A stretch of DNA of 64,000 nucleotides from an uncultured Balneolaceae bacterium (GTDB lineage Bacteria > Bacteroidota > Rhodothermia > Balneolales > Balneolaceae), in the NCBI GenBank assembly GCA_964449075.1, contig CAYVBJ010000013.1, positions 12,436 through 76,435 of the forward strand, in the 5' to 3' direction. The notes under the pieces were generated by a model. It saw only the letters and a program-made list of their open reading frames with translations. It searched no databases and was not told the DNA's origin. The translations under genes were made by a program, and so were the position numbers. Below are positions 6,408-54,789 of this stretch, piece after piece (the stretch's first letter is position 1; each line of letters begins with the position of its first letter).

Positions 6408-6760
6408 TAATACAACTTAATGGGGAAAGGTTGTTGAAACAGGTATTCTTTCGGGTATTATAGACATGTTACTCTAAATGCGGGAATGGACTCCGGGTCT
6501 GTGTAAAAAATGTACAAAATTCGATCTATCGCTCGATACTTTGGTTTCAGCCTGTGTTTTCGGATTAAAAACTGAAACTCGCAATCAAAGAGGCAAACGT
6601 TGTAAGCTCATAGGGTATAAGAAATAACAGCGATACGAGGTAAATGATCCATAGTTTGGTTTTTAATAACAAATGACTCCATATAAATTTTATATGCTCT
6701 TTTATCTTGTAAATAAATACAGCATCATTGCTGCTAATTTTTATTTAAAAAAATTGAAGA

Positions 6761-7528
6761 TTATTGAAGCAGTAGAAAAAGGCCGGCGGCAAGAAAAGCA
6801 CCAGCAATCGGTCCAAAAACCGGTACCCATGAATATGCCCAGTCACTACTGCCTTTGTGCGGAAAGGGAAGAAGTGCATGAGCAATACGTGGTCCCAGAT
6901 CCCGGGCAGGATTTATCGCATATCCCGTGGGTCCTCCCAGCGACAGACCAATCCCAAGTACAAGGAGTCCAACAGGCAGGGCAGATAATGCACCGAGACC
7001 AAACCCGATTTGTTCGCCGTTCAGGTTTATGGTTTCCAAGAACTCACCGTTCGGACCTATAAAACCCGGAGAGACCATGTACATCACACCAAATACAAGT
7101 ATAAAGGTCCCTATTACTTCCGTCATAAAGTTGGATGGATAATTTCTGATTTCGGGTGCTGTTGAAAAAATTGCAAGCTTAACCCCTTCATCTTCGGTTG
7201 CTGAAAAATGATCTTTATATGCAAGCCAAACGACTACAGCACCTAAAAAGCCACCCAGTGTTTGAGCGATTATATAGGGCACTACCATAATCCAATCGAA
7301 AAGACCTGCGGCTGCAAGGCCTATGGTTACAGCCGGATTGATATGAGCTCCGCTGAACTGGCCTACAGTAAAAACAGCGACAAAAACGCCCATACCCCAT
7401 CCCCACGTTATAACAATCCAGCCGCTGTTATTGCCCTTGGTTTTATTCAGAACAACATTTGCTACAACACCACCCCCAAAGATTATTAAAATAGCGGTGC
7501 CAATAATTTCAGCTATAAAAGGATACAT
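6761..7528 (-). CDS. glpF: Aquaglyceroporin / glycerol uptake facilitator (MIP family)
   Basis: 255 aa, 6 TM helices, two NPA boxes (HINPAVT and AINPARD). It is adjacent to glpD and glpK. Confidence 0.85.
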   Translation of the reverse strand: MYPFIAEIIGTAILIIFGGGVVANVVLNKTKGNNSGWIVITWGWGMGVFVAVFTVGQFSGAHINPAVTIGLAAAGLFDWIMVVPYIIAQTLGGFLGAVVVWLAYKDHFSATEDEGVKLAIFSTAPEIRNYPSNFMTEVIGTFILVFGVMYMVSPGFIGPNGEFLETINLNGEQIGFGLGALSALPVGLLVLGIGLSLGGPTGYAINPARDLGPRIAHALLPFPHKGSSDWAYSWVPVFGPIAGAFLAAGLFLLLQ

Positions 7529-7566
7529 ATTAGTTAGATTTAGAGTTAAGAATTCAAAACTTCCGG

Positions 7567-9141
7567 TTAGTTTTGTTCAGATAGTACGTAATTTTCAGCA
7601 ATTGCTGTATACTCTTTCACTTGTTCTTCCTGCCATTTTTTGTCGTGGCCGGCTTCTTCCGCCATGAGGCGGGCAACTTCAGGGGCCATTTCAATGCTGG
7701 CAGGTGCATCCAGTAAAATTGCCCTTGTTCTTCTTGCCAGTATGTCTTCTACAGTAACTGCAAGTTCCTTCCGTACTCCCCACACCACTTCCGCTTTCAG
7801 ATAAGGAAGACGTTCATGAAGTTTTTCGCCCAGTTCCGGACGTTTTTCAATCATTTTTTCAAGTGATACCTTATCCGAGCCGTAGTAATAAAGAGGATCT
7901 TTTTTATCAACGTTTTTTAGCCATCCGTGAATACGCAGATTTTCAGTAGTGCATTCCCTGATATTCAAACCAGCTACTGTTGCTGCCTGGTCGATCGTAT
8001 CCTGGGCCATTTTGCGATAGGTTGTCCATTTTCCGCCTGCAATCGTCACAAGACCTGATGGAGAAACAATTAGCGTATGATCACGTGATAACGAAGCTGT
8101 ATCTTTCGAATCTCCTGATTTTACGAGAGGTCGCAAGCCTGCAAACACACTTCTAACATCTTTCCTGGTCGGGTTGCCGGTGAGATACTGAGAAGCATGT
8201 TTCAGAATAAATTCAATCTCTGACTCCATAGCCACCGGCTCCAGTAATGGACTTTCAACAGGTGTATCAGTTGTTCCAAGTACAATTTTATCATGCCAGG
8301 GCACAGCAAAAAGTACGCGCCCGTCTTCCGTGTGCGGAACCATGATTGCACTCTCGCCCGGTAGGAATTTTTTATCAATGATAATATGGACTCCCTGGCT
8401 CGGAGCAATAATATTGTTGGCATCTTTGTTATCCATTTTCAGGATATCATCGGTAAATACGCCGGTGGCATTTATTACAACCCGGCCGTTTACTTCAAAT
8501 GATTCACCCGAAACCTGATCAGTAACTGTAACACCATTTGTGGTATCATTTGATTTCAGAAGTCCGGTTACTTTGGCGTAATTGAGAATGGTTGCATCAT
8601 GATCGAGTGCAGTTTGAACAAGGTTAATCGCAAGCCTGGAGTCATCGAATTGTCCGTCATAATAGATAACACCGCCTTTCAATCCTTCCGACTCAATTGT
8701 TGGCAGCAGCTCAAGAGTTTTTTCCCGGGAGAGATTTTTTGATGGTCCAAGACCAAGTTTACCGGCCAGCATGTCGTATACTTTCATCCCGATTCCGTAA
8801 AACGGGCCTTCCCACCAGTCATAATTAGGTACAATAAAAGATTGGTTGCGAACCAGGTGCGGGGCATTCTGAATTAGAAGTCCGCGTTCGCGCAAGGCTT
8901 CAAGTACAAGAGTTACATTTCCCTGCTGCAGATAGCGAACTCCACCATGCACCAATTTCGTAGATCTGCTGGATGTGCCTTTCGAAAAGTCATGCTGCTC
9001 CAGAAGCAGTGTTTTATATCCCCGTGATGCAGAATCAACAGCTGCTCCAAGTCCGGTTGCGCCTCCTCCGACAATTATGACATCCCAGTATTTTGCTTCG
9101 GATTTTACTCCGTCTAACATTTCATTTCTGTTTGGTTTCAT
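7567..9141 (-). CDS. glpD: FAD-dependent glycerol-3-phosphate dehydrogenase
   Basis: 524 aa with an N-terminal dinucleotide fold VIIVGGGATGLGAAVD and a DAO-type body plus C-terminal GlpD-type domain. It lies in a glp gene string. Confidence 0.9.
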   Translation of the reverse strand: MKPNRNEMLDGVKSEAKYWDVIIVGGGATGLGAAVDSASRGYKTLLLEQHDFSKGTSSRSTKLVHGGVRYLQQGNVTLVLEALRERGLLIQNAPHLVRNQSFIVPNYDWWEGPFYGIGMKVYDMLAGKLGLGPSKNLSREKTLELLPTIESEGLKGGVIYYDGQFDDSRLAINLVQTALDHDATILNYAKVTGLLKSNDTTNGVTVTDQVSGESFEVNGRVVINATGVFTDDILKMDNKDANNIIAPSQGVHIIIDKKFLPGESAIMVPHTEDGRVLFAVPWHDKIVLGTTDTPVESPLLEPVAMESEIEFILKHASQYLTGNPTRKDVRSVFAGLRPLVKSGDSKDTASLSRDHTLIVSPSGLVTIAGGKWTTYRKMAQDTIDQAATVAGLNIRECTTENLRIHGWLKNVDKKDPLYYYGSDKVSLEKMIEKRPELGEKLHERLPYLKAEVVWGVRKELAVTVEDILARRTRAILLDAPASIEMAPEVARLMAEEAGHDKKWQEEQVKEYTAIAENYVLSEQN

Positions 9142-9200
9142 TGTCTCTGATATTTTCTTGATAGATTTAAATTATTTTTAAAATAGATAGTTGCTGAATC

Positions 9201-10697
9201 TTATTTTTTAGACCACTCATTAGCAGCATTTAAAGCACGATTCCACCCATTAATTAAAACTTTTGAGTGTTTCTCTTCCATTTCGGGTGTAAACTGCCGG
9301 TCTTCCTGCCACTGTTCATTTATTTCATCGTGATCTGCCCAGTAACCGACAGCAAGACCCGCCAGGTACGCGGCACCCAGAGCGGTGGTTTCTAACACCT
9401 TTGGCCGGATGACAGGAGCCTGCAGGATATCGGACTGAAACTGCATCAGAAGATTATTGGCAGCTGCTCCGCCATCCACACGTAGTTCACGGATATCAAT
9501 CCCGGAGTCGGCCTGCATTGCATTCAGCACATCCATTGCCTGGTAGGCAATTCCTTCAAGGGCGGCCCGGGCAATATGTCCGGCGTTTGATCCTCTCGAC
9601 AATCCCACAATTGTACCGCGCGCATGCTGATTCCAGTGTGGTGCACCGAGACCTGCAAAAGCCGGAACCAGGTAAACTCCGTCGTTGTCGGGAACCGACT
9701 TTGCCAGTGCTTCTACGTCATATGAGTTGCGTATGATCCCCAGTTCATCCCGCAGCCACTGAACAACGGCTCCTGCAATAAAGATGCTTCCTTCAAGAGC
9801 GTACTCAACTTTTCCATTTACTTCCCACGCAATGGTTGTAAGTAAATTATTCTTGGATTCAATAGGTTTTTCACCGGTATTCATCACCATAAAACAGCCG
9901 GTGCCATACGTATTTTTAACCATGCCCGATTTGATGCAACGCTGGCCAAAGAGAGCGGCCTGCTGATCACCTGCAATTCCGGCAATAGGTACTTTTGAAG
10001 CAAAAATAGTGGTTTTAGTTCTTCCGTATATTTCACTTGAGGGCTTCACATCCGGTAGCAGGCTCTGCGGGATATCGAGAATCTCAAGAATATCCTGATC
10101 CCATTCACAGTCATGAATGTTATAGAGCATTGTACGCGAGGCATTGGTTACATCGGTGATATGGAGTTCTCCGCGGGTAAAATTCCAGATCAGCCAGCTG
10201 TCCATCGTACCGAAAGCAAGCTCTCCGTTTTTAGCTCTTTTGCGCACTCCGTCAATGTTGTCAAGAATCCACTTGATTTTTGTAGCTGAGAAATAGGAAT
10301 CAAGTATAAGCCCGGTTTTTTCCCGGAATGTTTCGGTTAGCCCGTCCTTTTTTAGCTTATCACAGAAATCGGATGTGCGGCGATCCTGCCATACGATGGC
10401 ATTGTAGACCGGTTTCCCGGTTTTTCTGTCCCAGATCAGCGTAGTTTCCCGCTGATTGGTAATGCCAATAGCAGCCATGTTGTTTCCATTTAAACCGGAC
10501 TTTGCGATAGCTTCAGCTGCAACACCGGCCTGGGTTGACCATATCTCATTTCCATCGTGTTCCACCCATCCGGCTTTTGGATAAATCTGTTTAAACTCTT
10601 TTTGAGCCGTAGAAATGATGGATCCTTTTTTATCAAAAATGATGGCTCTTGAACTTGTGGTTCCCTGGTCGAGTGCTAAGATATATTTTTCAGGCAT
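9201..10697 (-). CDS. glpK: Glycerol kinase
   Basis: FGGY kinase with N-terminus [17 protein letters not shown] and high similarity to GlpK throughout. I moved the start from the ORF-track 10769 to the ATG at 10697, verified in the sequence. Confidence 0.95.
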
Positions 10698-11060
10698 TAG
10701 ATTAGTTTTTGTGTTCTTGTTTAGTTGTCTATACAAGCTGCTTTCATCAATATCAGAAACCGCTTCCAAATAGTCAACAAAATTCGTTTGATTTTAGCAA
10801 CTTTTTTTTGAATTCGCCTGACAAGTGCAACCATTCCATTCCAGCCGGCTGGCATTGCACCGAACTCTACCAACCATCATAAACACCAGCCGAATTGAAA
10901 CTGACCTGCGACAGGCCTTCAGCCTGTGAAGACCGATTCGCAAAGATCTCCTCGGCTGGCAAATAATGATGGCGGGAAGTGAGCATCATTTGAGTATATT
11001 TTGCTGGGTGTAACCGCGGAGAACGCAGAGGAACGTGAAGGGTCATTTCCCGGTTGTGGT

Positions 11061-39925: not shown

Positions 39926-41479
39926 TTAATTCAAATTTCCGGTTTCGCCTGTTGTCATTTCGATCACATTGATTTCAATATTTTGCGAAGAGGCTGCGCC
40001 GAACTGATCGGTGGCAATAACCTTGAATTCCCATGTACGTACCTGGCGCAAAGTAGGGGTCCATCGGAAAAGGCCGGTTTGTTCATCAAGAGAAGCACCA
40101 TCAGGGAGATCTACACCCAGATATCTGAGAAGGTCAGGATTCACACCGTCTGGGTCAACAGCCTGAATTTCAAGTTCAAACGGCTCATTAGCAGGAATAG
40201 TTATCGGTCTCCGGGGGGTAAATCGAGGCGGAGCGTTGAATGACTTAAGATCAATCCAAAATGATGTACTGTCTTTCAGACCTTTTGAAGTTTGGGCAAT
40301 AATATTTACCATGTGGCGTCCTGTTTGAGTTGCCATCGGCTGCCAGTAGAACGATTGCCCCTTAATTTTTGCATTGCTTATGGAAGATTGATAATAAAAT
40401 TCAACATCGGCTGCATCATAATTTTCTTCTATTTCAAGCGGGATTAACACAGTTTTTGGAAATGGTATTGTGATATCCGAAACCTCTTTTAGTGTAACGG
40501 AGTTTGGCACATCAATGCTTTCTGGCTTCTGGTTCTCTACAGAGACCTGCCTTACAGGAAAAACCTGGTTGAATTCTGAAATCCAGAGAGATCCGCTTGT
40601 TACTGTAAAATAATTTCCGGAGCGCTGATCATCTTTCCAGTTTTCAGTCTCATCTTCATTTCTGACAATCCATAATAACCCGTTCTCAGTTCGGATTATG
40701 ACATTCTCATTCCAGGTATCCAGTTTGGTAACAGAGCTGCTGAGAGTTGCAATCACATTACTTTCGCCATTCGCCCCAACTTTGAAAACTGTTCCCGCAC
40801 TGTCAGAAGCATAAATGTTGTCATTAGTAAAAAAGAGTTTTGAAGCTGATCTGTCTATTTGCACGGATCGCTGATAGGCCGGCGGGGTGGCGCTGCTTTC
40901 ATGACGAAATAACTCAATAGTATTTTGATCAGTTAAAACATAGAGGTTATTGCTTCGATCAGCAGTTATATCAATAATATTTTTTCCAGAGAATGCATCA
41001 GAAGTTATAACTTCAGCCTCAGTATCCACTGCTTCAGGAGAATCGAGTGCAATTCTGGCCAGTTGAAGATTATTCAGTACGATATACAAACTGTTGCCTA
41101 TTCGTTTCACAGTCATAGGTTGTTCAGGTAAAACAGTGGCTGAGTAGACTCCCAGAACTGATGTAGGTTCAATAACAGTTAATCTGCGGCCATCGCCGTA
41201 CAGATAGGCGAAACGAGTATCCGCCTGCAATTTATTTCCACGCCGCTGCATTCCTGTTGATGAATAGAGCCATTGCAATGAATCGGCATGCGCACGGAAT
41301 ACGATTAATCCTTCAGTGTCAGAAAGAACATAGAGGTGAGTAGCAGAACTTTCAAGTGATTTGATTTGAGGTATCTCCATTAACTGAGAATAATCCTGCA
41401 TCATAACCGGTTGGGCAGAAAGGTCAATTGCACAGTTATATATAGTAAAAAGTAAAAATATTGATATCGCTTGCTTCAT
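39926..41479 (-). CDS. Secreted protein with a C-terminal cadherin-like / Ig-like (He_PIG-type) domain
   Basis: I trimmed the start to ATG 41479 (MKQAISIFLLFTIYNCAIDLSAQ signal peptide). The longer ORF-track start would overlap the upstream SDR gene by about 190 bp. C-terminal region: PPRFTP...AVDPDG...LPDGASLDEQTGLFRWTP. Confidence 0.6.
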   Translation of the reverse strand: MKQAISIFLLFTIYNCAIDLSAQPVMMQDYSQLMEIPQIKSLESSATHLYVLSDTEGLIVFRAHADSLQWLYSSTGMQRRGNKLQADTRFAYLYGDGRRLTVIEPTSVLGVYSATVLPEQPMTVKRIGNSLYIVLNNLQLARIALDSPEAVDTEAEVITSDAFSGKNIIDITADRSNNLYVLTDQNTIELFRHESSATPPAYQRSVQIDRSASKLFFTNDNIYASDSAGTVFKVGANGESNVIATLSSSVTKLDTWNENVIIRTENGLLWIVRNEDETENWKDDQRSGNYFTVTSGSLWISEFNQVFPVRQVSVENQKPESIDVPNSVTLKEVSDITIPFPKTVLIPLEIEENYDAADVEFYYQSSISNAKIKGQSFYWQPMATQTGRHMVNIIAQTSKGLKDSTSFWIDLKSFNAPPRFTPRRPITIPANEPFELEIQAVDPDGVNPDLLRYLGVDLPDGASLDEQTGLFRWTPTLRQVRTWEFKVIATDQFGAASSQNIEINVIEMTTGETGNLN

Positions 41480-41498
41480 CTTCGCAATCCTGTTTTTT

Positions 41499-42473
41499 TC
41501 ATAACCAATGATGTTTTTTATACCAGGCAATCGTTTTTTGCAATCCATCTTCAAGTGAATACCCGGGTTTGTAATCAATTTCCTCAACTGCTTTTTCATT
41601 TGAACAAGTCCATTCGTGAACCATCTCATTCGCCTTTTCTTTATTAAATACAGGATACTTACCAAAAAAAGAAGCCGAAGTTTCAACAACTGAAGATAAT
41701 TTTTTTACAAGTTTCGGTTTGATTCGAATCGGCAGCGTTTTTTTTCCGAGGGCTTTACCTGCTGCGCGCCGTATCTGATTCCAGTTATATATTTCAGGAC
41801 CAGATACAAAATAGGTGTGAACACCCGGATTTTCCAGGGCTGCGGCTTTTGAGATTCCCTGAATTACATCATCTACATAAACCATCGAAATCTCTGGCTT
41901 TTCACCATCCCCGACAATCGGACAGAGTCCGTAATTCATAATCTTAAAGAAAGAGTAGATCTGATCTTCACGTGGCCCGTACACTGCAGGCGGACGCAAA
42001 ACAGAAACAGTCATGTCGCCCAGCGCAGCCTGGTGAATCATCTCCTCCATCTTCTTTTTAGACTTGCCGTATCTGCTTACAGGATTCATCGGGTCAGATT
42101 CAGTGAGTGGTTTTCCATTAGCAGGTCCGGCTGCCGCAAGCGAAGATAAAATCACCATTTTTTTAACACCCGCTTTTTTCGCAACAAGTAACATATTTTC
42201 TGTTGCTTCAACATTTGCACGGTCAAACTCTTTTTGTGACTTTGCCATTACAAGTCCGGCAAGATGAAAAACAACATCTATATTTTCCATGGCTTTATGA
42301 AGCAGGGAGATACTGTACAAATCACCGGAAATTCGTACATAATCTTTTCCCCGGAGCCATTTTTCCCGGTTTCTGACAAGACATCTTACCTCAGAAATAT
42401 TTCCGGATTCAAGCAAACAATCAACAAGATGACTTCCGATAAAACCGGTGCCGCCGGTAACAAAAGTGTTCAT
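41499..42473 (-). CDS. NAD(P)-dependent epimerase/dehydratase-family (extended SDR) oxidoreductase
   Basis: 324 aa with the Rossmann motif VTGGTGFIGSHL and a catalytic YGKSK (YxxxK). Confidence 0.85.
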   Translation of the reverse strand: MNTFVTGGTGFIGSHLVDCLLESGNISEVRCLVRNREKWLRGKDYVRISGDLYSISLLHKAMENIDVVFHLAGLVMAKSQKEFDRANVEATENMLLVAKKAGVKKMVILSSLAAAGPANGKPLTESDPMNPVSRYGKSKKKMEEMIHQAALGDMTVSVLRPPAVYGPREDQIYSFFKIMNYGLCPIVGDGEKPEISMVYVDDVIQGISKAAALENPGVHTYFVSGPEIYNWNQIRRAAGKALGKKTLPIRIKPKLVKKLSSVVETSASFFGKYPVFNKEKANEMVHEWTCSNEKAVEEIDYKPGYSLEDGLQKTIAWYKKHHWL

Positions 42474-42554
42474 ATAATTATTATATTGATAAGCTTATTT
42501 AAACAGATACTGCAAAGCAACAAGATACGGGTTTGCAGTCTGCATTAAAAAATT

Positions 42555-43700
42555 ATGAGCAAATTTCGAGTAGCTATTTTTACGGGCAATTACAATCACA
42601 TCCGGGACGGTGTTTCGTTGACATTGAATCGTCTCGTCAGTTTTTTAATTCAGAATGATGTTGAGGTTGTTGTATTTGGTCCTACTACCGAAAATCCTGA
42701 GGTAGACCATGTGGGTGAATTTATACCGGTTCCCTCTAAGCCGGCACCGGGCAGACCTGAATACCGTCTTTCAACAGGCCTGTCGAAAGAGGCTAAAAAC
42801 CGGCTGGAAGAGTTCGATCCGGATATTATTCACATTGCAACTCCTGATCTGTTGGGATACCGTGCTTTAAAATGGGCAAAAAAACAGAGAAAAGTGATTG
42901 TAGCTTCCTATCATACCCATTTCCCAAGTTATTTGAAATACTATGGATTTCAATGGCTTGAACCGGCCGGCTGGAAATATCTGCGGTGGTTTTACAGCCA
43001 CTGTTCTCAGATTTATGTACCAACTCCTTCGATGGCAGCAGAGCTAAAAGAAAATAACATATCAAACGGCCTGATTGTCTGGGCGAGAGGAGTAGATACA
43101 AATCTGTTTAATCCGGAGAGAAGATCGGAAGAGTGGAGAAGCAAATTGGGTATTTTACCTGGTGATATTGTGGTCACGTTTGTTTCAAGGCTTGTTTGGG
43201 AGAAGAATTTGAAGATGTATGCAGATGTGCTGCGAACTCTGCAGAAAGATCATGTAAACGTGAAAGCTGTTGTAGTTGGAAGCGGGCCGGCAGGTGATGA
43301 ATTTAAATCTTTACTTCCATCTGCAATTATGACCGGGTTTCTTGAGGGCGAAGAATTGGCCAGATCGTATGCCAGCAGTGATATATTCTTTTTCCCGTCT
43401 GATACAGAAACCTTTGGCAGTGTCACTCTCGAAGCAATGGCAAGCGGATTACCGTGTGTGGTTGCAGATGCTGCCGGCAGTAAATCATTGGTTGAAAATA
43501 GTGTTAATGGCTACAGAGCTGAAGCAGAAGACTTTGGAGCATTTTTAGATGATACAGAGTCTCTGATTAAATATCCGGAATTACGTAAAGAGATGGGAAC
43601 TAATTCTTTGGAAAAGGCTAAAGAGTACAGCTGGGAAAATATCAACAGGAAACTGTTATCCTGTTACAGAGAAATGTTGTCAAATAAGCAGGAAGAGTAA
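42555..43700 (+). CDS. Glycosyltransferase family 4 (GT-B, group 1)
   Basis: 381 aa with a C-terminal donor-binding region FFFPSDTETFGSVTLEAMASGLPCVVAD (EX7E-type). Confidence 0.85.
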   Translation: MSKFRVAIFTGNYNHIRDGVSLTLNRLVSFLIQNDVEVVVFGPTTENPEVDHVGEFIPVPSKPAPGRPEYRLSTGLSKEAKNRLEEFDPDIIHIATPDLLGYRALKWAKKQRKVIVASYHTHFPSYLKYYGFQWLEPAGWKYLRWFYSHCSQIYVPTPSMAAELKENNISNGLIVWARGVDTNLFNPERRSEEWRSKLGILPGDIVVTFVSRLVWEKNLKMYADVLRTLQKDHVNVKAVVVGSGPAGDEFKSLLPSAIMTGFLEGEELARSYASSDIFFFPSDTETFGSVTLEAMASGLPCVVADAAGSKSLVENSVNGYRAEAEDFGAFLDDTESLIKYPELRKEMGTNSLEKAKEYSWENINRKLLSCYREMLSNKQEE

Positions 43701-43954
43701 GACAGTTTAATTACAGGGAGAATATAAAACCGTATATCGGTAATTTTCCTGAAACAAAAGAAAGGATTTGTCAGTAGTAATATACCCCTGAAAATTTAAA
43801 TAATATATCTAAGGGAATGCAGTTTATACCAGCTATGTTACTAAGCTGAATCAGAAAAACGGGAAACAAAATAGAATAGCGGCAAATCAATAATTTGATA
43901 GAATTTTAATACTGCCTATATTCCAACGATAATGTAAATTATAAGCACCTCGCG

Positions 43955-45196
43955 ATGGGCGAATTCAGAGCCGAAATTAAACGAGCAGACATTTTTACGA
44001 AAGCCTTTGAATTTACAAAGGCAGATGAAATTAAAGAAGCTGGTCTGTACCCTTACTTTAAACCGCTGCAAGCCACTGATGGAACGACCGTTCAGATTGA
44101 AGGTCGTGATGTGATCATGGCAGGTTCAAATAATTATTTGGGTTTGACAAATGATCCCAGAACCATGAAAGCAGCTCAGGATGTGATTAAGGTTTATGGA
44201 ACCGGCTGTACAGGTTCAAGGTATTTAAACGGAACCCTCGATTTGCATCTTGAGCTTGAAGAGAAACTTGCTGAATTCATGAATAAGGAGGCCTGTGTTC
44301 TGTTTAGCACAGGATATCAGACGAATGAAGGAAGTATACAGACAATTGCAGGCAGAAATGACATAATTTTTTCTGATAAGGACAATCATGCCTGTATTGT
44401 TGTCGGAACACAGGTATCGAATGCAAAAACTGTGCGCTACAAACACAATGATATTACACATCTCCGAAGACTTCTGGAGAACGCTGATCCTGAAGCGGGA
44501 AAAATTATCATCAGTGATGGTGTCTTTTCAATGTCCGGAACCATTGCCAGGATTCCGGAATTGCTGGAGCTTGCAAAAGAATACGGCGCACGATTGTATC
44601 TCGATGACGCTCATGCTATCGGAGTAATCGGTGATGGCGGCAGGGGCTCTGCCTCTGTATTTGGTCTGCTTGACCAGGTTGATCTTATCAGCGGAACATT
44701 TTCCAAATCTTTCGCGTCACTTGGTGGGTTTATTGTTGGTGAGAGACCTGTTATTGAATATATTCGTCATAATTCCCCCGCTCACATCTTTAGTGCGAGT
44801 ATGCCGCCTGCCAATGTCGCCACAGTATTAAAAGCTCTTGAAATACTGCAGGAGGAGCCCTGGAGACTCGAAAGGCTGGAAGAAATTTCTAATTATATGC
44901 GCACAGAGCTTCGGAAACTTGGCTTTAATGTATGGACAAGCCAAACTCCAATTATTCCTGTGGTAATCGGGGGTATGAATGAATGTTTCAGTTTTTGGAA
45001 AGATCTCTTTGAGGAAGGGGTTTACGTAAATGCAGTCGTCCCCCCTGGTGTTCCTGCTGGTCAGTCACTGGTTCGTACAAGCTATATGGCAACTCATACC
45101 AATGAACAGCTCGATCGTATTCTAAGTGCATTTCAGATTGTTGGAATAAAACATGGTATCATTGATAAGAATGGCCATTCTCTAATTGATATTTAA
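43955..45196 (+). CDS. spt: Alpha-oxoamine synthase, serine palmitoyltransferase-like
   Basis: 413 aa with the PLP lysine in GTFSKSF. Long stretches parallel Sphingomonas SPT as I recall it (GSRYLNGTLDLHLELEEKLAEF..., FSTGYQTN, YVNAVVPPGVPAG). BioF or Kbl cannot be excluded without a tree. Confidence 0.65.
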   Translation: MGEFRAEIKRADIFTKAFEFTKADEIKEAGLYPYFKPLQATDGTTVQIEGRDVIMAGSNNYLGLTNDPRTMKAAQDVIKVYGTGCTGSRYLNGTLDLHLELEEKLAEFMNKEACVLFSTGYQTNEGSIQTIAGRNDIIFSDKDNHACIVVGTQVSNAKTVRYKHNDITHLRRLLENADPEAGKIIISDGVFSMSGTIARIPELLELAKEYGARLYLDDAHAIGVIGDGGRGSASVFGLLDQVDLISGTFSKSFASLGGFIVGERPVIEYIRHNSPAHIFSASMPPANVATVLKALEILQEEPWRLERLEEISNYMRTELRKLGFNVWTSQTPIIPVVIGGMNECFSFWKDLFEEGVYVNAVVPPGVPAGQSLVRTSYMATHTNEQLDRILSAFQIVGIKHGIIDKNGHSLIDI

Positions 45197-45199
45197 AAA

Positions 45200-46333
45200 A
45201 TGCCCGATACTGAAACGAACGGGGTAACATTTGTAACCACCAAAGCGGAGAAAAAAGAGTTTCTCGAGTTTCCCTACTCGCACTATGCAGATGACAAGTA
45301 CTGGGTGCCGCCTCTTAAAATTGAGCAAAAAAAGCTTCTCGATACAAAAAAGAATCCTTTCTTTGAAAACGCTGAGATATCACTTTTTGTAGCATTCCAC
45401 AATGATAAACCTGCTGGCCGGATAGCTGCGATCATTGATCACAGATACAATGAATTTTATGAAAGCAAAACCGGTTTTTTTGGCTTTTTTGAGGTAATTG
45501 ATAATCAAAGCACGGCCGATTTGCTCTTCAGAGTTGCTGAAGACTGGCTGAAAGACAAAGGTATGGAAAATGTACTGGGGCCGGCAAGTCCCGGAATGAT
45601 GGATATGATAGGTGTTCTCGTTGAGGGGTTTGATAAATATCCGGCAATTATGATGCCCTACAATAAGCCTTACTACGATACATTGATAAAAAAATCCGGA
45701 TATGAAAAGTCTGTGGACCTGTTTACCTATATCGTATCTCAAGAATCTGTTGACAGGGACCGTATAAACAGAGCTGAGGCAATCGTTAAAAGACGTCTTC
45801 CAAATTTGGAAATCAGACCACTCGATCTGAAAAATCTTGAAAAAGAGGTAGAGATTGTTCGGGGTATCTTTAATGAAGCCTGGCAAGATAACTGGGGATT
45901 TATTCCCATTAGTGAAGAGGAGTTCAGGCATTTTGCTAATGATCTGAAAATGATCGTGGATACAGATTTTGCTCATATTGCTGAAGTGGATGGTGAACCG
46001 GTTGCCTTTTCGATTGCACTGCCTGACTATAACCAGGTCTTTAAAGAGATGAATGGCACACTTTTTCCGGTTGGAATACTAAAACTCTTATGGTATCGCA
46101 GAAAAATAGATAAGCTTCGAACCGCACTGATGGGAGTGAAAAAGGAGTACCAGGGAAAAGGAATTGATGTACTTTTACACAGAGAGACGATTCAAAATGG
46201 ACTTTACCGGGGCATGAATAGTTCTGAGATAGGATGGATTCTTGAGAATAATGTTAACATGATTCGTGTTGCCGAAAAAATTGGCGGACACTTTGAAAAG
46301 CGTTACCGGATGTATCAAAAAAGATTGATTTGA
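45200..46333 (+). CDS. GNAT-like N-acyltransferase family protein (about 377 aa)
   Basis: It starts 4 bp after spt. The C-terminal half has an acyl-CoA-binding motif-A-like LMGVKKEYQGKGIDVLL. Confidence 0.5.
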   Translation: MPDTETNGVTFVTTKAEKKEFLEFPYSHYADDKYWVPPLKIEQKKLLDTKKNPFFENAEISLFVAFHNDKPAGRIAAIIDHRYNEFYESKTGFFGFFEVIDNQSTADLLFRVAEDWLKDKGMENVLGPASPGMMDMIGVLVEGFDKYPAIMMPYNKPYYDTLIKKSGYEKSVDLFTYIVSQESVDRDRINRAEAIVKRRLPNLEIRPLDLKNLEKEVEIVRGIFNEAWQDNWGFIPISEEEFRHFANDLKMIVDTDFAHIAEVDGEPVAFSIALPDYNQVFKEMNGTLFPVGILKLLWYRRKIDKLRTALMGVKKEYQGKGIDVLLHRETIQNGLYRGMNSSEIGWILENNVNMIRVAEKIGGHFEKRYRMYQKRLI

Positions 46334-46377: not shown

Positions 46378-47412
46378 TCATAATCGGTCAAGATTCCTGA
46401 AAATCTCAACTTCATTTTCATCCAGGATATAAACATTGTCAAGCTGCTCAATGTGATAAACTGGTATCTCATCCATTTTTATCTTTGATTCGGGATCGAC
46501 AACCAGGATTCTGTTCAGGTGATACCCCCCGCTTGGTATCACCTTCAGATAACGTTTTCTTGTGGCAGAGAGGCCAATATAAACCCGATTCTTTTTTAAT
46601 GAGAAATCCACACCACGACCGAATCCACCATTTTCAATTTCAGTAATGAGCTCCCAGTTACTATTATAAATCTTTGTAGAGAAGTCACCACTGTCCTGAA
46701 TCCAGTAATCTCCATCGATCATTCTCAGTGAATGAGGGCTTTGCAGTTTCAATGGAACCACAGTTTCTTTATCAAGATTGATCACACCACCATCTCCCTG
46801 GTTTTTAACCAGTTTTTCGAGCAGTATCCTGTAATATTGCCATCCGCTGACATGATGAATCAGTACGCACAAATTGCCTTCGTAATTCCTGAAAACCTGG
46901 TTGCAGTGAAACCGGTCTCTTACCTTTTCTTCGCTTGCCTTTTGAAGCTCCTTTTGAGTTCTGAATTTATCAAGGGAAATACGCCTGATGATGTTCTCTT
47001 GTTTGGTATTGTACTCAATTACCTCATCGAATTCGGTGTTTGAAATCCAGAGAGAATCTCCTAAGTAATGGATGTCGTGCAGATCATAAATACGGGGAAT
47101 ATCCAGTTTTGTAAATTTGCCTGTTTTGGTATCGAGTTTTCTCAGCTCATCATTGATGGATACAATCAGCTGATTCCTATTATGTTTTTTCCAGGCAATA
47201 GAACTGACCCCGACTTTTCCCCAGTTATTAAAAAAATTCACAGGTTCTGAATGTGCGTCCCGGTGCAGAATCTGAACCGGACGGATCTCATCTCTGTCCA
47301 GGTTTTGATCAGCCGGATTGTTGTTCTGCGATCCCAGTATTAAAAGATTATGCTTTAAAGACATTTGATCGATAATATTCAAAGTGTCTAATATGCGGCA
47401 TATTTTGATCAA
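46378..47412 (-). CDS. Hypothetical protein (beta-rich, possibly propeller-like)
   Basis: 344-aa ORF with no strong competing ORF. I recognised no motif. The start is uncertain (alternative MSLKHN...). Confidence 0.4.
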   Translation of the reverse strand: MIKICRILDTLNIIDQMSLKHNLLILGSQNNNPADQNLDRDEIRPVQILHRDAHSEPVNFFNNWGKVGVSSIAWKKHNRNQLIVSINDELRKLDTKTGKFTKLDIPRIYDLHDIHYLGDSLWISNTEFDEVIEYNTKQENIIRRISLDKFRTQKELQKASEEKVRDRFHCNQVFRNYEGNLCVLIHHVSGWQYYRILLEKLVKNQGDGGVINLDKETVVPLKLQSPHSLRMIDGDYWIQDSGDFSTKIYNSNWELITEIENGGFGRGVDFSLKKNRVYIGLSATRKRYLKVIPSGGYHLNRILVVDPESKIKMDEIPVYHIEQLDNVYILDENEVEIFRNLDRL

Positions 47413-47477: not shown

Positions 47478-49826
47478 ATGCTTAGCAATCTGAAATTCAT
47501 TTATCTTTTGCTGTTATTTATGCTTTCTGCCGGAGGACAGATCTCAGCACAGCAGCTGGGAACCTGGAGAGCCAGCACTTCTTTCAACAGCATTACAGAT
47601 ATTACAGCCTCTGATAACAGTACCATTTGGGCAGCTACTACGGGCGGACTTATGTCGGTCGAAAACGGGGAGGTTTCCGGTACATTTACCACAGTGAACG
47701 GGATGCATCGCCTGAGTCCGGATGTTATTGAATTTGATTCTGGTAATAACAGGTTATTCCTTGGATATGTTGATGGAATGATTGATATATTTGATATCGA
47801 TACTCAAGAGTTTACCAGGCTAGAGGATATCTTCAGAGCTTCATCATTTACTACAAGGTCTGTTAACCAGATGAAGGTTCGTGATCAGCAGCTTTTTGTT
47901 GCCACGTCGTTTGGGATTGTTGTTTTCAATCTGAATACTCTGTTTGTGGAAGATACATTTTCAAAACTTGGAGAGTTTGATCGTGCGATTAATATCAATG
48001 CGATAACATTTGTAAACAATAATTTATGGGCTGCCACCCAGCAGGGAGTGGCCACCGGTTCCCTGGATACCAATCTTGCAACAGATGAGAACTGGATTAA
48101 TTTTGATAGTTCCGGCGGATTTGTCGATTTACCCGTTCGGGCGATCGAATCGCTCGGCGGACGTATCTTTGCCTCAACGGATGACCGCAACTTCGAATTT
48201 AATGGTCTGGAGTGGTCTGAGAGTACTCTCTTTACGGGAACAAATGTTATTAAATTTAAAAAAGGTACAAGTTCAGAAAGTATAATCGGAATCCAGGAGC
48301 GCCGGCTGATTCTTGTGGATGAAACGTTTGAACGGGAGATCCGGAACGTGAATACGTCCCGCCTGACATCCGGATTTTTGATCGATGACAATTTCCGGTT
48401 TCAGCTTTTTGCAGGATCTGCAATAGATGGCCTGGGGGTATCTGCAAATTCTGATACCGGTTTTCGGTTTATCTCGCCTGAAGGGCCAAGTGTAAATCTG
48501 ATCGATGGAATGACTTTCGATGAAAATACTCTGATCTCCGGCACCTCCCGTTTTTCTGACAGGGATGCCACAATTGATAATACGAAAGGGTACCTGATAA
48601 GAAGGGAAGGAGAGTGGAATGCGTTTAATATCAATAACACCAGTACGCTTGCAGAAAACCGGTTTGATCTTGTTTTTACAACTGCTGTAACCGACTCTTT
48701 TTACTATTTTGGAAGCTGGGGAAGAGGAATTGCGAGGCACGAGAAAGAGACGGATGAAATCAGAATTTTCAATAATGAAAATTCCACACTGGAAGGCTGG
48801 GTTGCCGATGATCCGGGTTTTCCGGTTATCAGTGGATTGCAGGCAGACAGTGAAGGACGCGTATGGGCGGTAAGCCGTTTTGGTTCCACCCCGCTCTACA
48901 ACCAGCTGCCAGGTGACGAAGACTGGGTTAATTTTGCACCGCTTGGTGGATTGTCCTCTTCAGATTTATACGTAGGCCTCTTTATTGATTCGAGAGACTG
49001 GAAGTGGGTATCTCTGCAGTCAAACAGAAGAATTGGCCAGGGGATGGTGATTATTGATACAGGTGATCCGAATGATGAATCGGACCAGAGAGGTATAAAG
49101 CTGGTTGATGATTTCAACCAGGGGAATTTGCCAAACAACCAGGTCACCGCAATTATTGAAGATTTAAATGGTGAAGTGTGGATCGGGACTGAGCGTGGCA
49201 TCGCAAAATTTGTGATACCCCAATTTATACTGGATGGATCACCCAATGATATCAGGGCACAATGGCTTATCAATGCAGATACAACTGCGGCTTCTCCTTT
49301 TCTGCTAAGAGATATTCAGGTAACAGCGATGGCTGTTAACGGGGCCAATCAAAAGTGGGTTGGCACATCCAATGAAGGTGTTTTCCTGTTAAATGAACAG
49401 GGAAACAGAATACTGAATCAATTTACAACTGAAAATAGTCCGCTGCTTTCCAACGATATTCAGTCAATGGCTGTAAATCCTGAAAACGGCGAACTTTTTA
49501 TTTCCACCAGTGTGGGGCTGATCTCTTTCCTGGATGTTCCGCGAATTGCAGAAACCAGTATGGACAAGCTAAAAGTATTTCCAAATCCATTTGTCTATGA
49601 CCGGCACGACAGAATATTTATAGACGGAATGTCTCAGGAAACAAAAGTGAGAATTCTTGCATCCAACGGATCACTTATTCAGACGATTGAGGCAAGAGGG
49701 GGCAGAATTGAATGGAATGCAAGAGACTTTGAGGGAAAACGGGTAGGGTCTGGTGTATATCTTGTTGTTGCAATTGATGAAAACAACAGTGAAAGGGGTG
49801 TAGGAAAAGTGGTAATCATACGCTAA
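47478..49826 (+). CDS. Two-propeller secreted protein with a T9SS C-terminal sorting domain (PorZ-like)
   Basis: 782 aa with a signal peptide and repeated two-component-regulator-propeller-like blades (WAATxxGL, WIGTERGI, WVGTSNEGV). The C-terminus KVFPNPFVYDR...GSGVYLVVAIDENN...GKVVIIR is typical of type-A T9SS CTDs. Size and architecture match PorZ (recall). Confidence 0.55.
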   Translation: MLSNLKFIYLLLLFMLSAGGQISAQQLGTWRASTSFNSITDITASDNSTIWAATTGGLMSVENGEVSGTFTTVNGMHRLSPDVIEFDSGNNRLFLGYVDGMIDIFDIDTQEFTRLEDIFRASSFTTRSVNQMKVRDQQLFVATSFGIVVFNLNTLFVEDTFSKLGEFDRAININAITFVNNNLWAATQQGVATGSLDTNLATDENWINFDSSGGFVDLPVRAIESLGGRIFASTDDRNFEFNGLEWSESTLFTGTNVIKFKKGTSSESIIGIQERRLILVDETFEREIRNVNTSRLTSGFLIDDNFRFQLFAGSAIDGLGVSANSDTGFRFISPEGPSVNLIDGMTFDENTLISGTSRFSDRDATIDNTKGYLIRREGEWNAFNINNTSTLAENRFDLVFTTAVTDSFYYFGSWGRGIARHEKETDEIRIFNNENSTLEGWVADDPGFPVISGLQADSEGRVWAVSRFGSTPLYNQLPGDEDWVNFAPLGGLSSSDLYVGLFIDSRDWKWVSLQSNRRIGQGMVIIDTGDPNDESDQRGIKLVDDFNQGNLPNNQVTAIIEDLNGEVWIGTERGIAKFVIPQFILDGSPNDIRAQWLINADTTAASPFLLRDIQVTAMAVNGANQKWVGTSNEGVFLLNEQGNRILNQFTTENSPLLSNDIQSMAVNPENGELFISTSVGLISFLDVPRIAETSMDKLKVFPNPFVYDRHDRIFIDGMSQETKVRILASNGSLIQTIEARGGRIEWNARDFEGKRVGSGVYLVVAIDENNSERGVGKVVIIR

Positions 49827-49830
49827 GATC

Positions 49831-51942
49831 ATGAGTAAACCGGCCGGGTATGACATTACGATTATCATCGTCAACTACAATGTAAAAGAGTTCCTGGCTA
49901 ACTGCCTGCGATCGGTTGAAAATGCATCCCGGGGATTGAATACAGAGTGTATTGTAGTAGATAACGCCTCAAAAGATGGCTCCCTGGAATTTCTCAAAAA
50001 TCGCTTCAAAGACGTTCGGTATATTGAAAATTCTGAAAATTATGGATTTGGAAAAGCAAATAATCAGGCAATACGTGAAGCAAAAGGGAAATACACACTT
50101 CTTCTGAATCCTGATACACTTCTCCAGGAAGATACACTCAGAGTTCTGATCCGTCATATGGACGAAAACAGTGACTGTGGGGCATGTGGTTGCAAAATTG
50201 TAAATCCGGATGGTACGTTTGCCCCGGAATCGAGAAGGACTGTCCCGACAATATCAACAGCACTTTTCAAGGCATCAGGACTCACTGCCCTGTTTCCGGA
50301 AAGCCGGTTATTTGGCAGGTACTATGAAAGCTGGAAAAATGAGAATGAACCGGGAGAGATTGAAGTATTATCGGGTTCTTTTATGTTTTTTCGCAGCAGT
50401 GCATTAAAGGAAGCAGGCGGTTTTGATGAACGTTTTTTTATGTATGCGGAGGATATTGATCTCTGTTACCGTGTCAGGAAAAATGGCTGGAGAATCGACT
50501 ATGTACCCGAAACTTCCATTATTCACTACAAGGGAGAGAGCTCAAAACAGAATAACATGCAGTATGTACGTCATTTTAACCGGTCTCTTTACCTCTTCTT
50601 CGAAAAGCATTATTCATCCAGGTATTCGTCCTTTTTCAGACTCATGGTTTTTATTGCCATTTTTATCAGATCGATTGTCTCAATGAGTTCAGTATTCATC
50701 AAAAAACATCGCTTTGTGATTGTTGATCTGCTGATCCTTAACCTGGCACTTCTGATCAGCTACGCAGCGAGGTTTAACTTTGATCCGGTTGAAATTTCAA
50801 ACCGGGTTCGATTTGAATTTTTGTCACTGAATCTCATTTTGTCAATATTCTATCTTATCTACGGTCAGCTATTTGGTATCGTCAGCAAGCACAGGTACTC
50901 TGTGATTGGCAGTCTGAAAGCTGTGGTGATGAGTTTTGCAACGCTGGCCGTGATTGCCTTTTTTGCAAGGGAACTTGCTTTTTCTCGTATAATATTTGCA
51001 GTAAGCGGAGTTTTGGGTTTTTTCTCAGTTGCCCTGGTACGTATACTGCGCCTGAATTTTTCCAAAGATTCGGTATCTGCCAGGGGGCGTTTCAAAACGC
51101 CGGGAATACTGATAGCGGGGGTAAGTGAAAAGACTGCAGACCTGGTAAGGAAGATTTCTGCTAATGCCGGCAGACAAAAAAAGATACTTGGAATTATTCA
51201 CCAGGAAAAGTGGGACGGTAAAACCGAGATTGAAGGTGTATCGGTAATCGGGTCCATTCAACAACTGCCGGAGCTGATCAGGGCTACAGAAGCTGATCAA
51301 ATATACTACCTTACAGATGCTCTTTCGTTCAGTGAAATCCTGAAATCGCTTGAAAAAATCAAATACCTGGATGCTGAATCGAAAATTGTCTCATCAGATA
51401 TCAACTTTTTACTTGGGAAAGCTAATGTTGAATACCTGGATGATATTGCTGTTATAGAGGCTGATATGTCGTTTTTAAATCCGCTGCAACGCTTTTTGAA
51501 AAGAGCTTTTGATATCGTATTTAGTTTTACAGCGATTCTGCTGCTGACCCCCTTTGTCTTTTTCGGCTGGCTGATGCACAAAAACAAATCCGGAAAAATT
51601 CCTTGCTACGATGGCAAGAAAATGACATCAATGACTCTTCTGAAACCTGTTCGTGATCATAAGTGGGTGAACCGGTGGCTCTGCTGTTTGCACGTATTGA
51701 CCGGTAAGATCAGCTTCACAGGTTCGGATTTAATCCTGGCGGGCGGTAACGGATATAATTACAAATATAAAAGCGGTCTCACAGGTTACTGGCAACTGCA
51801 TAAGAATGATAATTATATCTCTGAGAACCGGCAGAGATTTGATTTGTACTATCTTCAGAACTATTCGGTATGGTTTGATGTGGATATTCTGATTAAATCG
51901 TTTTTAAACGGATCGATCCTGGATCAGTTCTCAGAGCTATAA
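49831..51942 (+). CDS. Fusion protein: N-terminal GT2 glycosyltransferase, polytopic middle, C-terminal degenerate sugar-phosphotransferase (PGT)-like domain
   Basis: 703 aa. GT2 motifs ITIIIVNYN, VVDNASKDGS and YAEDIDLCYR. The C-terminus aligns with the bacterial sugar transferase family (LKRAFDIVFSFTAILLLTPF..., KSGLTGYWQL, DLYYLQNYSVWFDVDILIKS) but lacks the KFRTM and DELPQ motifs. Confidence 0.75.
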   Translation: MSKPAGYDITIIIVNYNVKEFLANCLRSVENASRGLNTECIVVDNASKDGSLEFLKNRFKDVRYIENSENYGFGKANNQAIREAKGKYTLLLNPDTLLQEDTLRVLIRHMDENSDCGACGCKIVNPDGTFAPESRRTVPTISTALFKASGLTALFPESRLFGRYYESWKNENEPGEIEVLSGSFMFFRSSALKEAGGFDERFFMYAEDIDLCYRVRKNGWRIDYVPETSIIHYKGESSKQNNMQYVRHFNRSLYLFFEKHYSSRYSSFFRLMVFIAIFIRSIVSMSSVFIKKHRFVIVDLLILNLALLISYAARFNFDPVEISNRVRFEFLSLNLILSIFYLIYGQLFGIVSKHRYSVIGSLKAVVMSFATLAVIAFFARELAFSRIIFAVSGVLGFFSVALVRILRLNFSKDSVSARGRFKTPGILIAGVSEKTADLVRKISANAGRQKKILGIIHQEKWDGKTEIEGVSVIGSIQQLPELIRATEADQIYYLTDALSFSEILKSLEKIKYLDAESKIVSSDINFLLGKANVEYLDDIAVIEADMSFLNPLQRFLKRAFDIVFSFTAILLLTPFVFFGWLMHKNKSGKIPCYDGKKMTSMTLLKPVRDHKWVNRWLCCLHVLTGKISFTGSDLILAGGNGYNYKYKSGLTGYWQLHKNDNYISENRQRFDLYYLQNYSVWFDVDILIKSFLNGSILDQFSEL

Positions 51943-53379: not shown

Positions 53380-54789
53380 TTGCCAAGAATAAATCGTTTC
53401 AGAGAAATCACGTTTACTTTTCTTCTGGATGCCTTGATTCTGTGTCTTGCCTGGTTTCTGTTTTATATCACGGAGACCCGCATGCTGGATCAATTTATAG
53501 AAAGAAGTAGTTTTACCCCGCTTACATTGGGTTTTGTGCATGTGGCTTTCTGGCTCACAGTTACTTCAGGAATGGGACTTTATAAAAAGTTATACCTCAT
53601 TTCCAGGTTCGACGAGTTCCTGAAGGTATTGAAGGCCACGATTACAGGTACATTAATTTTGTATTTTGTTTCCACACTCGATCCCAGAATTAACTTCCAG
53701 GACGCAATAAGCACAACGGCTATTTATTTCTTTTATGTAGGATTTTGTCTTTCTGTTAACCGGTTTGTAATCCGAACTGTTCAGCGAATGTATGCAGTGA
53801 GGGGAAAAGGACTGCACAGGGCCATTATTGTAGGTACGGGAAAATCAGCCCAAACGGTTTTTGAAGATCTTCAAAGAAATAAAACTCTTGGTATGCAGGT
53901 GTTGGGTTTTATTCATCTTAACGGCAAAGCAGGGGAATCGGAACCGCTGGTTAATGAAAAAGAGATTTTAGGTGAATTATCGGAAATCGGATCGGTGATC
54001 AGCAATCTAGAGATACAGGAGGTGATTGTTGCCCTGGAACCGGAACGAAGAGAAGACCTGGTACGTGTTATCAGCAGTGTGGATTATCCCGACATATCAC
54101 TGAAACTTCTGCCCGACTTTTTTCAGCTTGTGAACGGTCTCAATAAAACCAATCAAATTTTTGGACTTCCTCTTGTTGACGTATCACCTGCGCCTCTTTC
54201 TTACCATGAACGATTTTTAAAACGAATGCTTGATGTAATCGTTTCCCTGGTTGTGCTCCTGTTATCGATACCACTTATAATTATTATATCGATTTTGATT
54301 AAGACTACTTCAGAAGGCCCGGTTATTTATCGTCAAAAGAGGGTTGGGCGTAACGGCAGAAATTTCACGATGTATAAATTCAGAACAATGATAGATAATG
54401 CCGAAGCAAAGAGCGGGCCAACATGGGCCAGTGACAACGATCCGAGAATTACAAATGTTGGCCAGTGGCTTCGAAAATTACGACTGGATGAGTTACCACA
54501 ATTTATAAATGTATTGAAAGGTGATATGAGTCTGGTAGGTCCTCGTCCGGAAAGGCCGCATTTTGTCGAAAAATTTCAGAAACAGATTCCTCTGTACACA
54601 AGACGCCTTCGGGTTAAGCCCGGAATTACAGGCTGGGCACAGGTTAAGTGGAAATATGACACCTCTCTCGATGATGTCATTGAAAAAACAAAATACGATC
54701 TTTTTTATGTAGAAAATATGTCTTTGAGAATGGATTTCAAGATCTTGATAAATACAATTTTTACTGTTGTAAGAGCCAAGGGGAAGTAA
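53380..54789 (+). CDS. Polyprenyl-phosphate glycosyl-1-phosphate transferase (WbaP-like PGT)
   Basis: 469 aa with N-terminal TM helices, a CoA-binding-like middle domain, and an intact C-terminal catalytic domain (YKFRTM, LDELPQFINVLKGDMSLVGPRPERP, KPGITGWAQV). The ORF-track start is a TTG, so the true start is uncertain. Confidence 0.85.
   Translation: MPRINRFREITFTFLLDALILCLAWFLFYITETRMLDQFIERSSFTPLTLGFVHVAFWLTVTSGMGLYKKLYLISRFDEFLKVLKATITGTLILYFVSTLDPRINFQDAISTTAIYFFYVGFCLSVNRFVIRTVQRMYAVRGKGLHRAIIVGTGKSAQTVFEDLQRNKTLGMQVLGFIHLNGKAGESEPLVNEKEILGELSEIGSVISNLEIQEVIVALEPERREDLVRVISSVDYPDISLKLLPDFFQLVNGLNKTNQIFGLPLVDVSPAPLSYHERFLKRMLDVIVSLVVLLLSIPLIIIISILIKTTSEGPVIYRQKRVGRNGRNFTMYKFRTMIDNAEAKSGPTWASDNDPRITNVGQWLRKLRLDELPQFINVLKGDMSLVGPRPERPHFVEKFQKQIPLYTRRLRVKPGITGWAQVKWKYDTSLDDVIEKTKYDLFYVENMSLRMDFKILINTIFTVVRAKGK

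Follow-up and report, generated by a model that had tools for sequence, protein, structure and literature searches.

Does a compact group of four genes in an uncultured member of the Balneolaceae encode the synthesis of a sugar-capped sphingolipid? The genes occupy positions 41499 to 46333 of the window, the 64,000-nucleotide stretch of contig CAYVBJ010000013.1 that was analysed (contig C13 of a 158-contig, 3.94-Mb genome estimated to be 97.6% complete). The host falls in the class Rhodothermia of the Bacteroidota (GTDB), and its nearest named relatives are uncultured Balneolaceae metagenome-assembled genomes (MAGs) and Balneola. The four genes encode an extended short-chain dehydrogenase/reductase (SDR), a family 4 glycosyltransferase (here GT4a), an alpha-oxoamine synthase (AOS) and a GNAT-like acyltransferase. 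All four open reading frames (ORFs) are present in the ORF list where the original prediction had placed them, and Pfam and NCBIfam returned the domain classes that it had assigned. From sequence comparisons, we consider it likely that the cluster encodes dihydroceramide biosynthesis of the bacterial type found in Caulobacter, Escherichia coli B and Sphingobacterium, with an added head-group glycosyltransferase. Thus read, a sphingolipid with a sugar cap is very probably produced by the host. In support, the genes are present, reciprocal best hits tie the proteins to their families, active-site motifs and protein fold agree, and synteny is conserved. With its core triad, the cluster adds one more case to a known pathway and does not amount to a new kind of system; some novelty lies only in the GT4 module and in a lead from paralogues of the acyltransferase.

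Three core enzymes of the predicted ceramide pathway

Several comparisons support assignment of the AOS as a serine palmitoyltransferase (Spt)-type enzyme. Its top NCBIfam model is 'serine palmitoyltransferase, CFB' (501.8 bits, with the models for BioF, Kbl and related enzymes at 386 bits or less), and it matches Pfam Aminotran_1_2 with 200 bits. In the PDB, the nearest characterised enzyme is the SPT of Sphingobacterium multivorum (3A2B/8GUH) at 417 bits. Lower scores were obtained for Kbl-type enzymes (about 290 bits), the cysteate acyltransferase CFAT (235 bits) and BioF (about 200 bits); all non-SPT matches (BioF, Kbl, HemA, CqsA and CFAT were compared) lie at or below 293 bits. The alignment with 8GUH is free of gaps over 377 residues, with 49.6% identity. 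The AOS retains the pyridoxal 5'-phosphate (PLP) lysine motif GTFSKS, its DDAH and HxC/HAS motifs align with those of 8GUH, and the serine-pocket motifs GTGCTGSR and FSTGYQTN were identified. A 2026 structural paper (PMC13692747) names the Asn of the serine pocket as a feature of SPT that is absent from CFAT, and we took the positions that discriminate the two enzymes from that paper. By alignment, the pocket of the window enzyme is of the SPT and not the CFAT type (Asn117 equivalent, GTGCxGSR, and FSASM instead of FAKS), and the host's own CFAT departs from it at the serine-pocket positions.

Three AOS genes were found in the host genome: spt in the window, a CFAT gene on contig C2 (494 bits against PDB entry 28eh) and bioF on contig C1, where it adjoins bioC. 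With a separate BioF in the genome, the window AOS is not the sole candidate for bioF, so the refuting condition named in the original prediction does not hold. In a maximum-likelihood tree, the enzyme falls within a well-supported Balneolales clade that is nested in a larger clade of GNAT-linked Bacteroidota enzymes, and this clade is separate from BioF and Kbl. AOS families cross-match strongly (the BioF and Kbl models reach about 385 bits), as would be expected if the window enzyme were a BioF/Kbl paralogue that lies among unrelated neighbours by chance. With the Spt model and the SPT structure, the score rises by about 115 to 130 bits, and we regard such a paralogue as extremely improbable. 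Identification as BioF or Kbl was rejected based on model and structure scores, the separate BioF and the tree, and identification as a cysteate acyltransferase based on the host's own CFAT and the differing pocket motifs.

The GNAT-like protein has a weak match to Pfam Acetyltransf_1 and no NCBIfam match. It is 38% identical to YghO of E. coli K-12 over its full length (374 residues, E 9e-85), and YghO is its sole match in BL21(DE3). In the reverse search, the top match of YghO in the host genome is the window protein (251 bits, versus 143 and 105 bits for two further YghO-like paralogues). The yghO gene (ECD_02850) was published as a homologue of Caulobacter CC_1154 (44% identity, 98% coverage, E 1e-107; Padilla-Gomez et al., 2022, PMC9386255, Supplementary Table 2), which encodes an N-acyltransferase needed for dihydroceramide (PMC9386255). 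An AlphaFold2 model built with 33 homologues (pLDDT 89.7, pTM 0.88) has the form of a tandem GNAT, with a QGKG motif located in the C-terminal GNAT. The top Foldseek matches of this model are 7q3a (MAB_4324, TM 0.63-0.70), 2wpw (a clavulanate tandem GNAT), MshD and FemX, a result that identifies the tandem-GNAT fold and nothing more specific. A sequence search of the PDB returned a marginal match only, to 7q3a (E 0.004). These comparisons support membership of the bCerS family of N-acyltransferases and a predicted function as bacterial ceramide synthase.

The SDR carries the motif GGTGFIG (GxxGxxG) at residues 7-13 and a YGKSK motif (YxxxK) that aligns with YAKSK of its E. coli counterpart. 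This counterpart, ECD_02852 of BL21, is 30% identical over the full length (E 1e-39). The two proteins are reciprocal best hits: the SDR finds ECD_02852 in BL21 with E 2.6e-30 (runner-up 7.4e-15), and ECD_02852 finds the SDR in the host genome with E 2.6e-31 (runner-up 1.7e-8). ECD_02852 is itself a homologue of Caulobacter CC_1164, the ceramide reductase CerR (34% identity; PMC9386255). Assignment to the CerR family is thus supported by homology, and the protein is predicted to act in the ceramide pathway as a 3-keto reductase that uses NAD(P)H. Function as a sugar-nucleotide epimerase that feeds the glycosyltransferase was judged unlikely, as the SDR accompanies spt and bcerS in many loci that lack GT4 genes and, among E. 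coli proteins, matches the CerR homologue best and not GalE.

The original prediction had proposed these three identities, those of the GNAT-like protein and the SDR from domain class and adjacency only. All three are upheld here: the phylogeny that it called for groups the AOS with Spt-type enzymes, and the other two proteins are reciprocal best hits of published homologues of CC_1154 and CC_1164 and are both syntenic with spt in many phyla.

Several observations weigh against this assignment. The AOS scores below the equivalog cut-off of NCBIfam NF047600 (640 bits). The larger Rhodothermia/Ignavibacteria-type clade scores 475-518 bits on the Spt model, versus 670-722 bits for Sphingobacteriia/Chitinophagia-type neighbours, which places the window enzyme in a group that is sister to canonical CFB Spt. 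Thus, a different amino-acid substrate is possible. No N-terminal signal peptide was seen in the translation of the SDR, in which the Rossmann motif begins at residue 7, and the E. coli homologue is alike in this respect; Caulobacter CerR, in contrast, has been reported to be periplasmic (PMC11087976). For the GNAT-like protein and the SDR, comparison with their Caulobacter and Bacteroides fragilis counterparts was indirect only, by way of the E. coli homologues, and it is through this bridge that the two are related to the Caulobacter proteins. Finally, a CFAT gene is present in 49/49 sampled Balneolaceae and a gene of the type of p2, one of the two YghO-like paralogues of the host, in 10/49. 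Most Balneolaceae encode CFAT and only one YghO-like protein, so the spt-linked N-acyltransferase may also acylate capnine where p2 is absent.

The low Spt score, the separate clade and the 39 genomes with CFAT and no p2-type N-acyltransferase would fit an alternative in which the product of the AOS and the GNAT-like protein resembles a sphingolipid but does not derive from serine. This could be a lipid with a 1-deoxy base (from alanine or glycine), or a sulfonolipid formed via acylation of capnine. We consider this improbable, as the enzyme has the pocket motifs of S. multivorum SPT in place of those of CFAT, and a dedicated CFAT is encoded elsewhere in the host genome. Furthermore, deoxy bases are among the side products of Bacteroides Spt, and their formation would therefore leave the family assignment unchanged.

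The scheme that follows for the serine-based pathway is inferred, both in its substrates and reaction order and in the molecule that is glycosylated and the lipid that results. Spt, a PLP enzyme, would condense L-serine with a fatty acyl thioester to form 3-ketodihydrosphingosine. The long-chain base would be N-acylated from acyl-CoA by bCerS, and CerR would reduce the 3-keto group with NAD(P)H, yielding dihydroceramide. Acylation before reduction is the order adopted from work on Caulobacter and B. fragilis. GT4a would then glycosylate the 1-OH group, with a nucleotide sugar as hexose donor and with retention of configuration, producing a monoglycosyl-ceramide. In most relatives, a second glycosyltransferase (GT4b) would yield the diglycosyl form.

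The same three enzyme families are encoded in Caulobacter crescentus by Spt (CC_1162/CCNA_01220), bCerS (CC_1154/CCNA_01212) and CerR (CC_1164/CCNA_01222). The Caulobacter genes are likewise clustered, and dihydroceramide is the product predicted for the window. Unlike Caulobacter, the host lacks a dedicated acyl carrier protein (ACP; AcpR) and acyl-ACP synthetase (AasR): a homology search of the host genome gave no match to AcpR and, for AasR, a weak partial match on another contig only. No dedicated ACP or acyl-ACP synthetase was found beside spt in the loci of relatives. Also in contrast to Caulobacter, the window Spt is of the Bacteroidota and not the Rhodobacteria type, and the SDR lacks an export signal. 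The cluster of E. coli B/BL21(DE3), yghO-aasR-epi-acpR-spt (ECD_02850 to ECD_02854), provides reciprocal best hits for all three window proteins (YghO 38%, epi 30% and Spt 39% identity). In BL21(DE3), the gene order is yghO / fatty acyl-AMP ligase, epimerase/dehydratase-family protein, ACP and spt. The E. coli B cluster has no GT4 but includes AasR, AcpR and LptF/G paralogues that the window cluster does not have. E. coli K-12 retains yghO but has neither spt nor cerR.

Conservation of the gene block

The arrangement of the cluster is not due to chance, because a block of the form DUF2400-MutY-He_PIG-SDR / GT4a-GT4b-Spt-GNAT is kept in 12/12 sampled Balneolales genomes and SDR / GT4-(GT4b)-Spt-GNAT in 13 further Balneolales-type loci. 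The divergent layout of the SDR and GT4a genes occurs in all Balneolales loci sampled. The Spt-GNAT pair is also kept in 8/8 genomes of other Rhodothermia orders (20/20 Rhodothermia sampled overall). Homologues of the GNAT-like gene are present in 287/301 sampled Bacteroidota genomes. Many other Bacteroidota families have the order SDR / Spt-GNAT or Spt-GNAT-SDR, and one large family with small, host-type genomes has the GNAT gene alone, in line with the gene dispersal reported in the literature (PMC11334938).

A species scan, in which each GTDB species was represented by one genome, yielded 80 loci with a GNAT homologue from about 10 phyla. Represented among others are Balneolaceae, Rhodothermales, Ignavibacteria, the sphingolipid-bearing Sphingobacterium, Pedobacter, Parapedobacter, Chitinophaga and Reichenbachiella, as well as Gemmatimonadales, Zixibacteria, WOR-3, Spirochaetia and Planctomycetota. 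An Spt-type gene lies within 3 kb of the GNAT homologue in 57 of the 80 loci (52/66 where there was room on both sides), an SDR gene within 4.5 kb in 51, and both are beside it in 45. In one genome (G049), Spt and a bCerS-like protein are fused in a single 821-aa ORF (L045:9663-12128, minus strand). Adjacency across phyla and the fusion, together with the scores, the tree and the separate bioF beside bioC, refute the suggestion that a BioF/Kbl paralogue lies next to unrelated genes by chance.

The operons of Sphingobacterium, Pedobacter and Chitinophaga encode GNAT proteins that are 38-41% and SDRs that are 30-34% identical to those of the window. In these, the three genes are co-directional and the Spt passes the NCBIfam cut-off. 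The window differs from such operons in its divergent SDR, in its Spt from the sister clade and in the inserted GT4 genes. Bacteroides fragilis shares the same phylum-level logic, in that CerS (BF9343_4218) and CerR (BF9343_4240) are accompanied by a GT4 (AgcT, BF9343_3149) that glycosylates ceramide. The ceramide genes of B. fragilis, unlike those of the window, are dispersed, and dispersal is reported for the sphingolipid-producing Bacteroidota studied so far, which are Bacteroidales (PMC11334938). The implication of the original prediction that the compact gene set was defined in Bacteroidota thus fails for the studied Bacteroidales. It fits other Bacteroidota, in which clustering is common; outside the Bacteroidales, the three ceramide genes are usually clustered. 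We found no report of sphingolipids from Balneolaceae or Rhodothermia in the literature searched. With these findings, the ceramide pathway that was defined for bacteria in 2021-22 would take in the Balneolaceae and the whole class Rhodothermia, which are halophilic/marine lineages.

The glycosyltransferase module and its predicted acceptor

The two Pfam domains of GT4a, Glyco_transf_4 and Glycos_transf_1, score 105 and 107 bits. The top NCBIfam matches are GlcNAc-phosphatidylglycerol synthase (151.7 bits), Mgs (85.5 bits) and IagA/BgsA (84.2 bits), all far below cut-off, and a sequence search of the PDB returned generic GT4 enzymes only. From sequence, such family matches alone cannot separate a ceramide from a diacylglycerol acceptor. 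Of the Balneolales loci, 25/25 carry a GT4a orthologue within the spt operon, and orthologues of 47-63% identity are present in all Rhodothermia sampled. In most Balneolales relatives GT4b, which is only distantly related to GT4a, is encoded directly downstream. In one such operon (L015), GT4a, GT4b, spt and bcerS lie at 6090-7250, 7256-8386, 8475-9710 and 9723-10844, with gaps of 6, 89 and 13 bp. A search of the whole host genome found no GT4b orthologue (best match 26-28% identical), and one other Balneolaceae MAG (L084) likewise lacks this gene. Absence of GT4b predicts a mono- rather than a di-glycosyl lipid.

The best support for a link between GT4a and ceramide comes from gene neighbourhoods in Gemmatimonadales. 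A GT4a orthologue (51-52% identity) is present in 3/61 sampled genomes of this order, and this rarity suggests horizontal transfer of the GT4 pair. In 4/4 GT4a-positive Gemmatimonadales genomes (L124, L139, L163 and L164), GT4b-GT4a is encoded directly and divergently beside spt-GNAT-SDR, with Spt 48-51% and GNAT 39-41% identical to the window proteins.

Some findings point away from a ceramide acceptor. In Rhodothermia outside the Balneolales, the GT4a-GT4b pair is not beside spt. In at least two genomes it is found with an MMPL/RND-type transporter and a DUF3047 protein (L059:10209-13477 and L061:9082-12437), a neighbourhood that may serve glycolipid export. More distant homologues of GT4a turn up without linkage to spt in other families; in family f19 they are universal and lie apart from bcerS. 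Thus, the acceptor could be diacylglycerol. In the window itself, an AT-rich spacer of 255 bp separates GT4a from spt, so the two genes may not be co-transcribed. Together with the diacylglycerol and phosphatidylglycerol glycosyltransferases among the top NCBIfam matches, these findings would suit an alternative in which the ceramide triad is real and GT4a is a glycoglycerolipid synthase that acts on diacylglycerol or phosphatidylglycerol, co-located as part of an operon for membrane-lipid remodelling. The product of the cluster would then be plain ceramide or ceramide with another head group.

We consider a glycoglycerolipid synthase rather unlikely. The matches in question are far below cut-off, and enzyme class cannot decide the acceptor: AgcT, the alpha-galactosylceramide synthase of B. 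fragilis, shares its GT4_UGDG-like class and its KEGG orthology with diacylglycerol glucosyltransferases (bioRxiv 10.1101/2023.05.23.541633). The Gemmatimonadales genes are rare yet always beside spt-bcerS-cerR where they occur, and in Balneolales the operon linkage of GT4a is without exception. Thus, GT4a probably glycosylates ceramide, and the diacylglycerol alternative takes most of the remaining probability. The proposal that a glycosyltransferase of this cluster adds a sugar to give a glycosphingolipid still stands as a prediction, one that has gained support from conservation of the neighbourhood in two phyla. GT4a may represent a recruitment that is independent of AgcT. If the ceramide acceptor is correct, the Balneolales would be producers of mono- or di-glycosyl dihydroceramides. 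The GT4 pair is a testable candidate for glycosyl-ceramide synthase, and close relatives offer a natural contrast between one-gene and two-gene versions.

YghO-like paralogues, locus layout and neighbouring genes

The first of the two additional YghO-like paralogues in the host genome, p2, is 31% identical to the window GNAT and falls in a separate, long-branched clade of the tree. In the host, p2 and CFAT are on different contigs (G000:C12:68694-69818 and G000:C2:85201-86427, both on the plus strand). In 10/20 genomes of Bacteroidota family f21, p2 orthologues are, by coordinates, tail-to-tail with CFAT at a distance of up to 1 kb (example loci are L071, L074, L075 and L076). The other paralogue (G000:C33:7-1140, minus strand; 29-31% identity) is cut by the contig end, and its very long branch makes placement unsure.

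The chemistry of the sulfonolipid (capnine) pathway, which involves cysteate synthase, CFAT (CapB/SulA) and ketocapnine reductase, parallels that predicted for the window cluster. As in this route, the host also encodes CFAT and extra YghO-like paralogues. The two pathways differ in the pocket of the AOS, which is of the serine type in the window enzyme and of the cysteate type in CFAT of the sulfonolipid route. The sulfonolipid reviews that we read name no enzyme for N-acylation of capnine. Because its orthologues adjoin CFAT in family f21, p2 is a candidate for the capnine N-acyltransferase of sulfonolipid synthesis, and this missing enzyme is a testable side lead. We propose, tentatively and with somewhat more doubt than conviction as to the whole, that GT4a (with GT4b) may be an uncharacterised, horizontally mobile head-group module for glycosyl-ceramide that is shared by Rhodothermia and a few Gemmatimonadales, and that p2 may be the capnine N-acyltransferase.

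The features of the locus are listed in Table 1. The SDR and GT4a genes are divergent, with the intergenic region measured from start to start, and the stop of spt is separated from the start of bcerS by 3 nt. A scan of the locus for sigma-70 promoters and terminators, which is uninformative for Bacteroidota, gave no promoter evidence.

Table 1. Features of the predicted ceramide locus in window coordinates.
Feature	Position	Strand	Basis
cerR-like extended SDR, 324 aa	41499-42473	-	Pfam Epimerase/3Beta_HSD
Divergent intergenic region SDR/GT4, 81 bp	42474-42554		Coordinates
GT4a, predicted retaining GT-B glycosyltransferase, 381 aa	42555-43700	+	Pfam Glyco_transf_4 and Glycos_transf_1
AT-rich spacer, 255 bp, at the GT4b position of most relatives	43701-43954		Sequence
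spt, alpha-oxoamine synthase (AOS), 413 aa	43955-45196	+	Pfam Aminotran_1_2; NCBIfam SerpalmtaseCFB
bcerS, YghO-family tandem-GNAT N-acyltransferase (predicted), 377 aa	45200-46333	+	Weak Acetyltransf_1; YghO homology

Directly downstream of the SDR gene is a gene for a secreted protein with a He_PIG Ig domain and a beta-propeller (39926-41689, minus strand), which is syntenic across the Balneolales. Its listed TTG start overlaps the SDR gene by 190 nt; the true start is likely an internal Met at about 41449, ahead of the signal-peptide-like sequence MKQAISIFLLF. This gene and a DUF4915-like gene at 46378-47412 were excluded as cluster members, as neither has a link to the pathway outside the Balneolales.

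Further downstream on the plus strand, the window encodes PorZ of the type IX secretion system (47478-49826). This is followed after 4 nt by a gene for a 703-aa protein with a GT2 domain and most of a polyprenyl-phosphate sugar transferase (region 47478-51942). A second, complete Bac_transf gene is present at 53380-54789 on the same strand. The PorZ, GT2 and Bac_transf genes may be related to anionic lipopolysaccharide (A-LPS).

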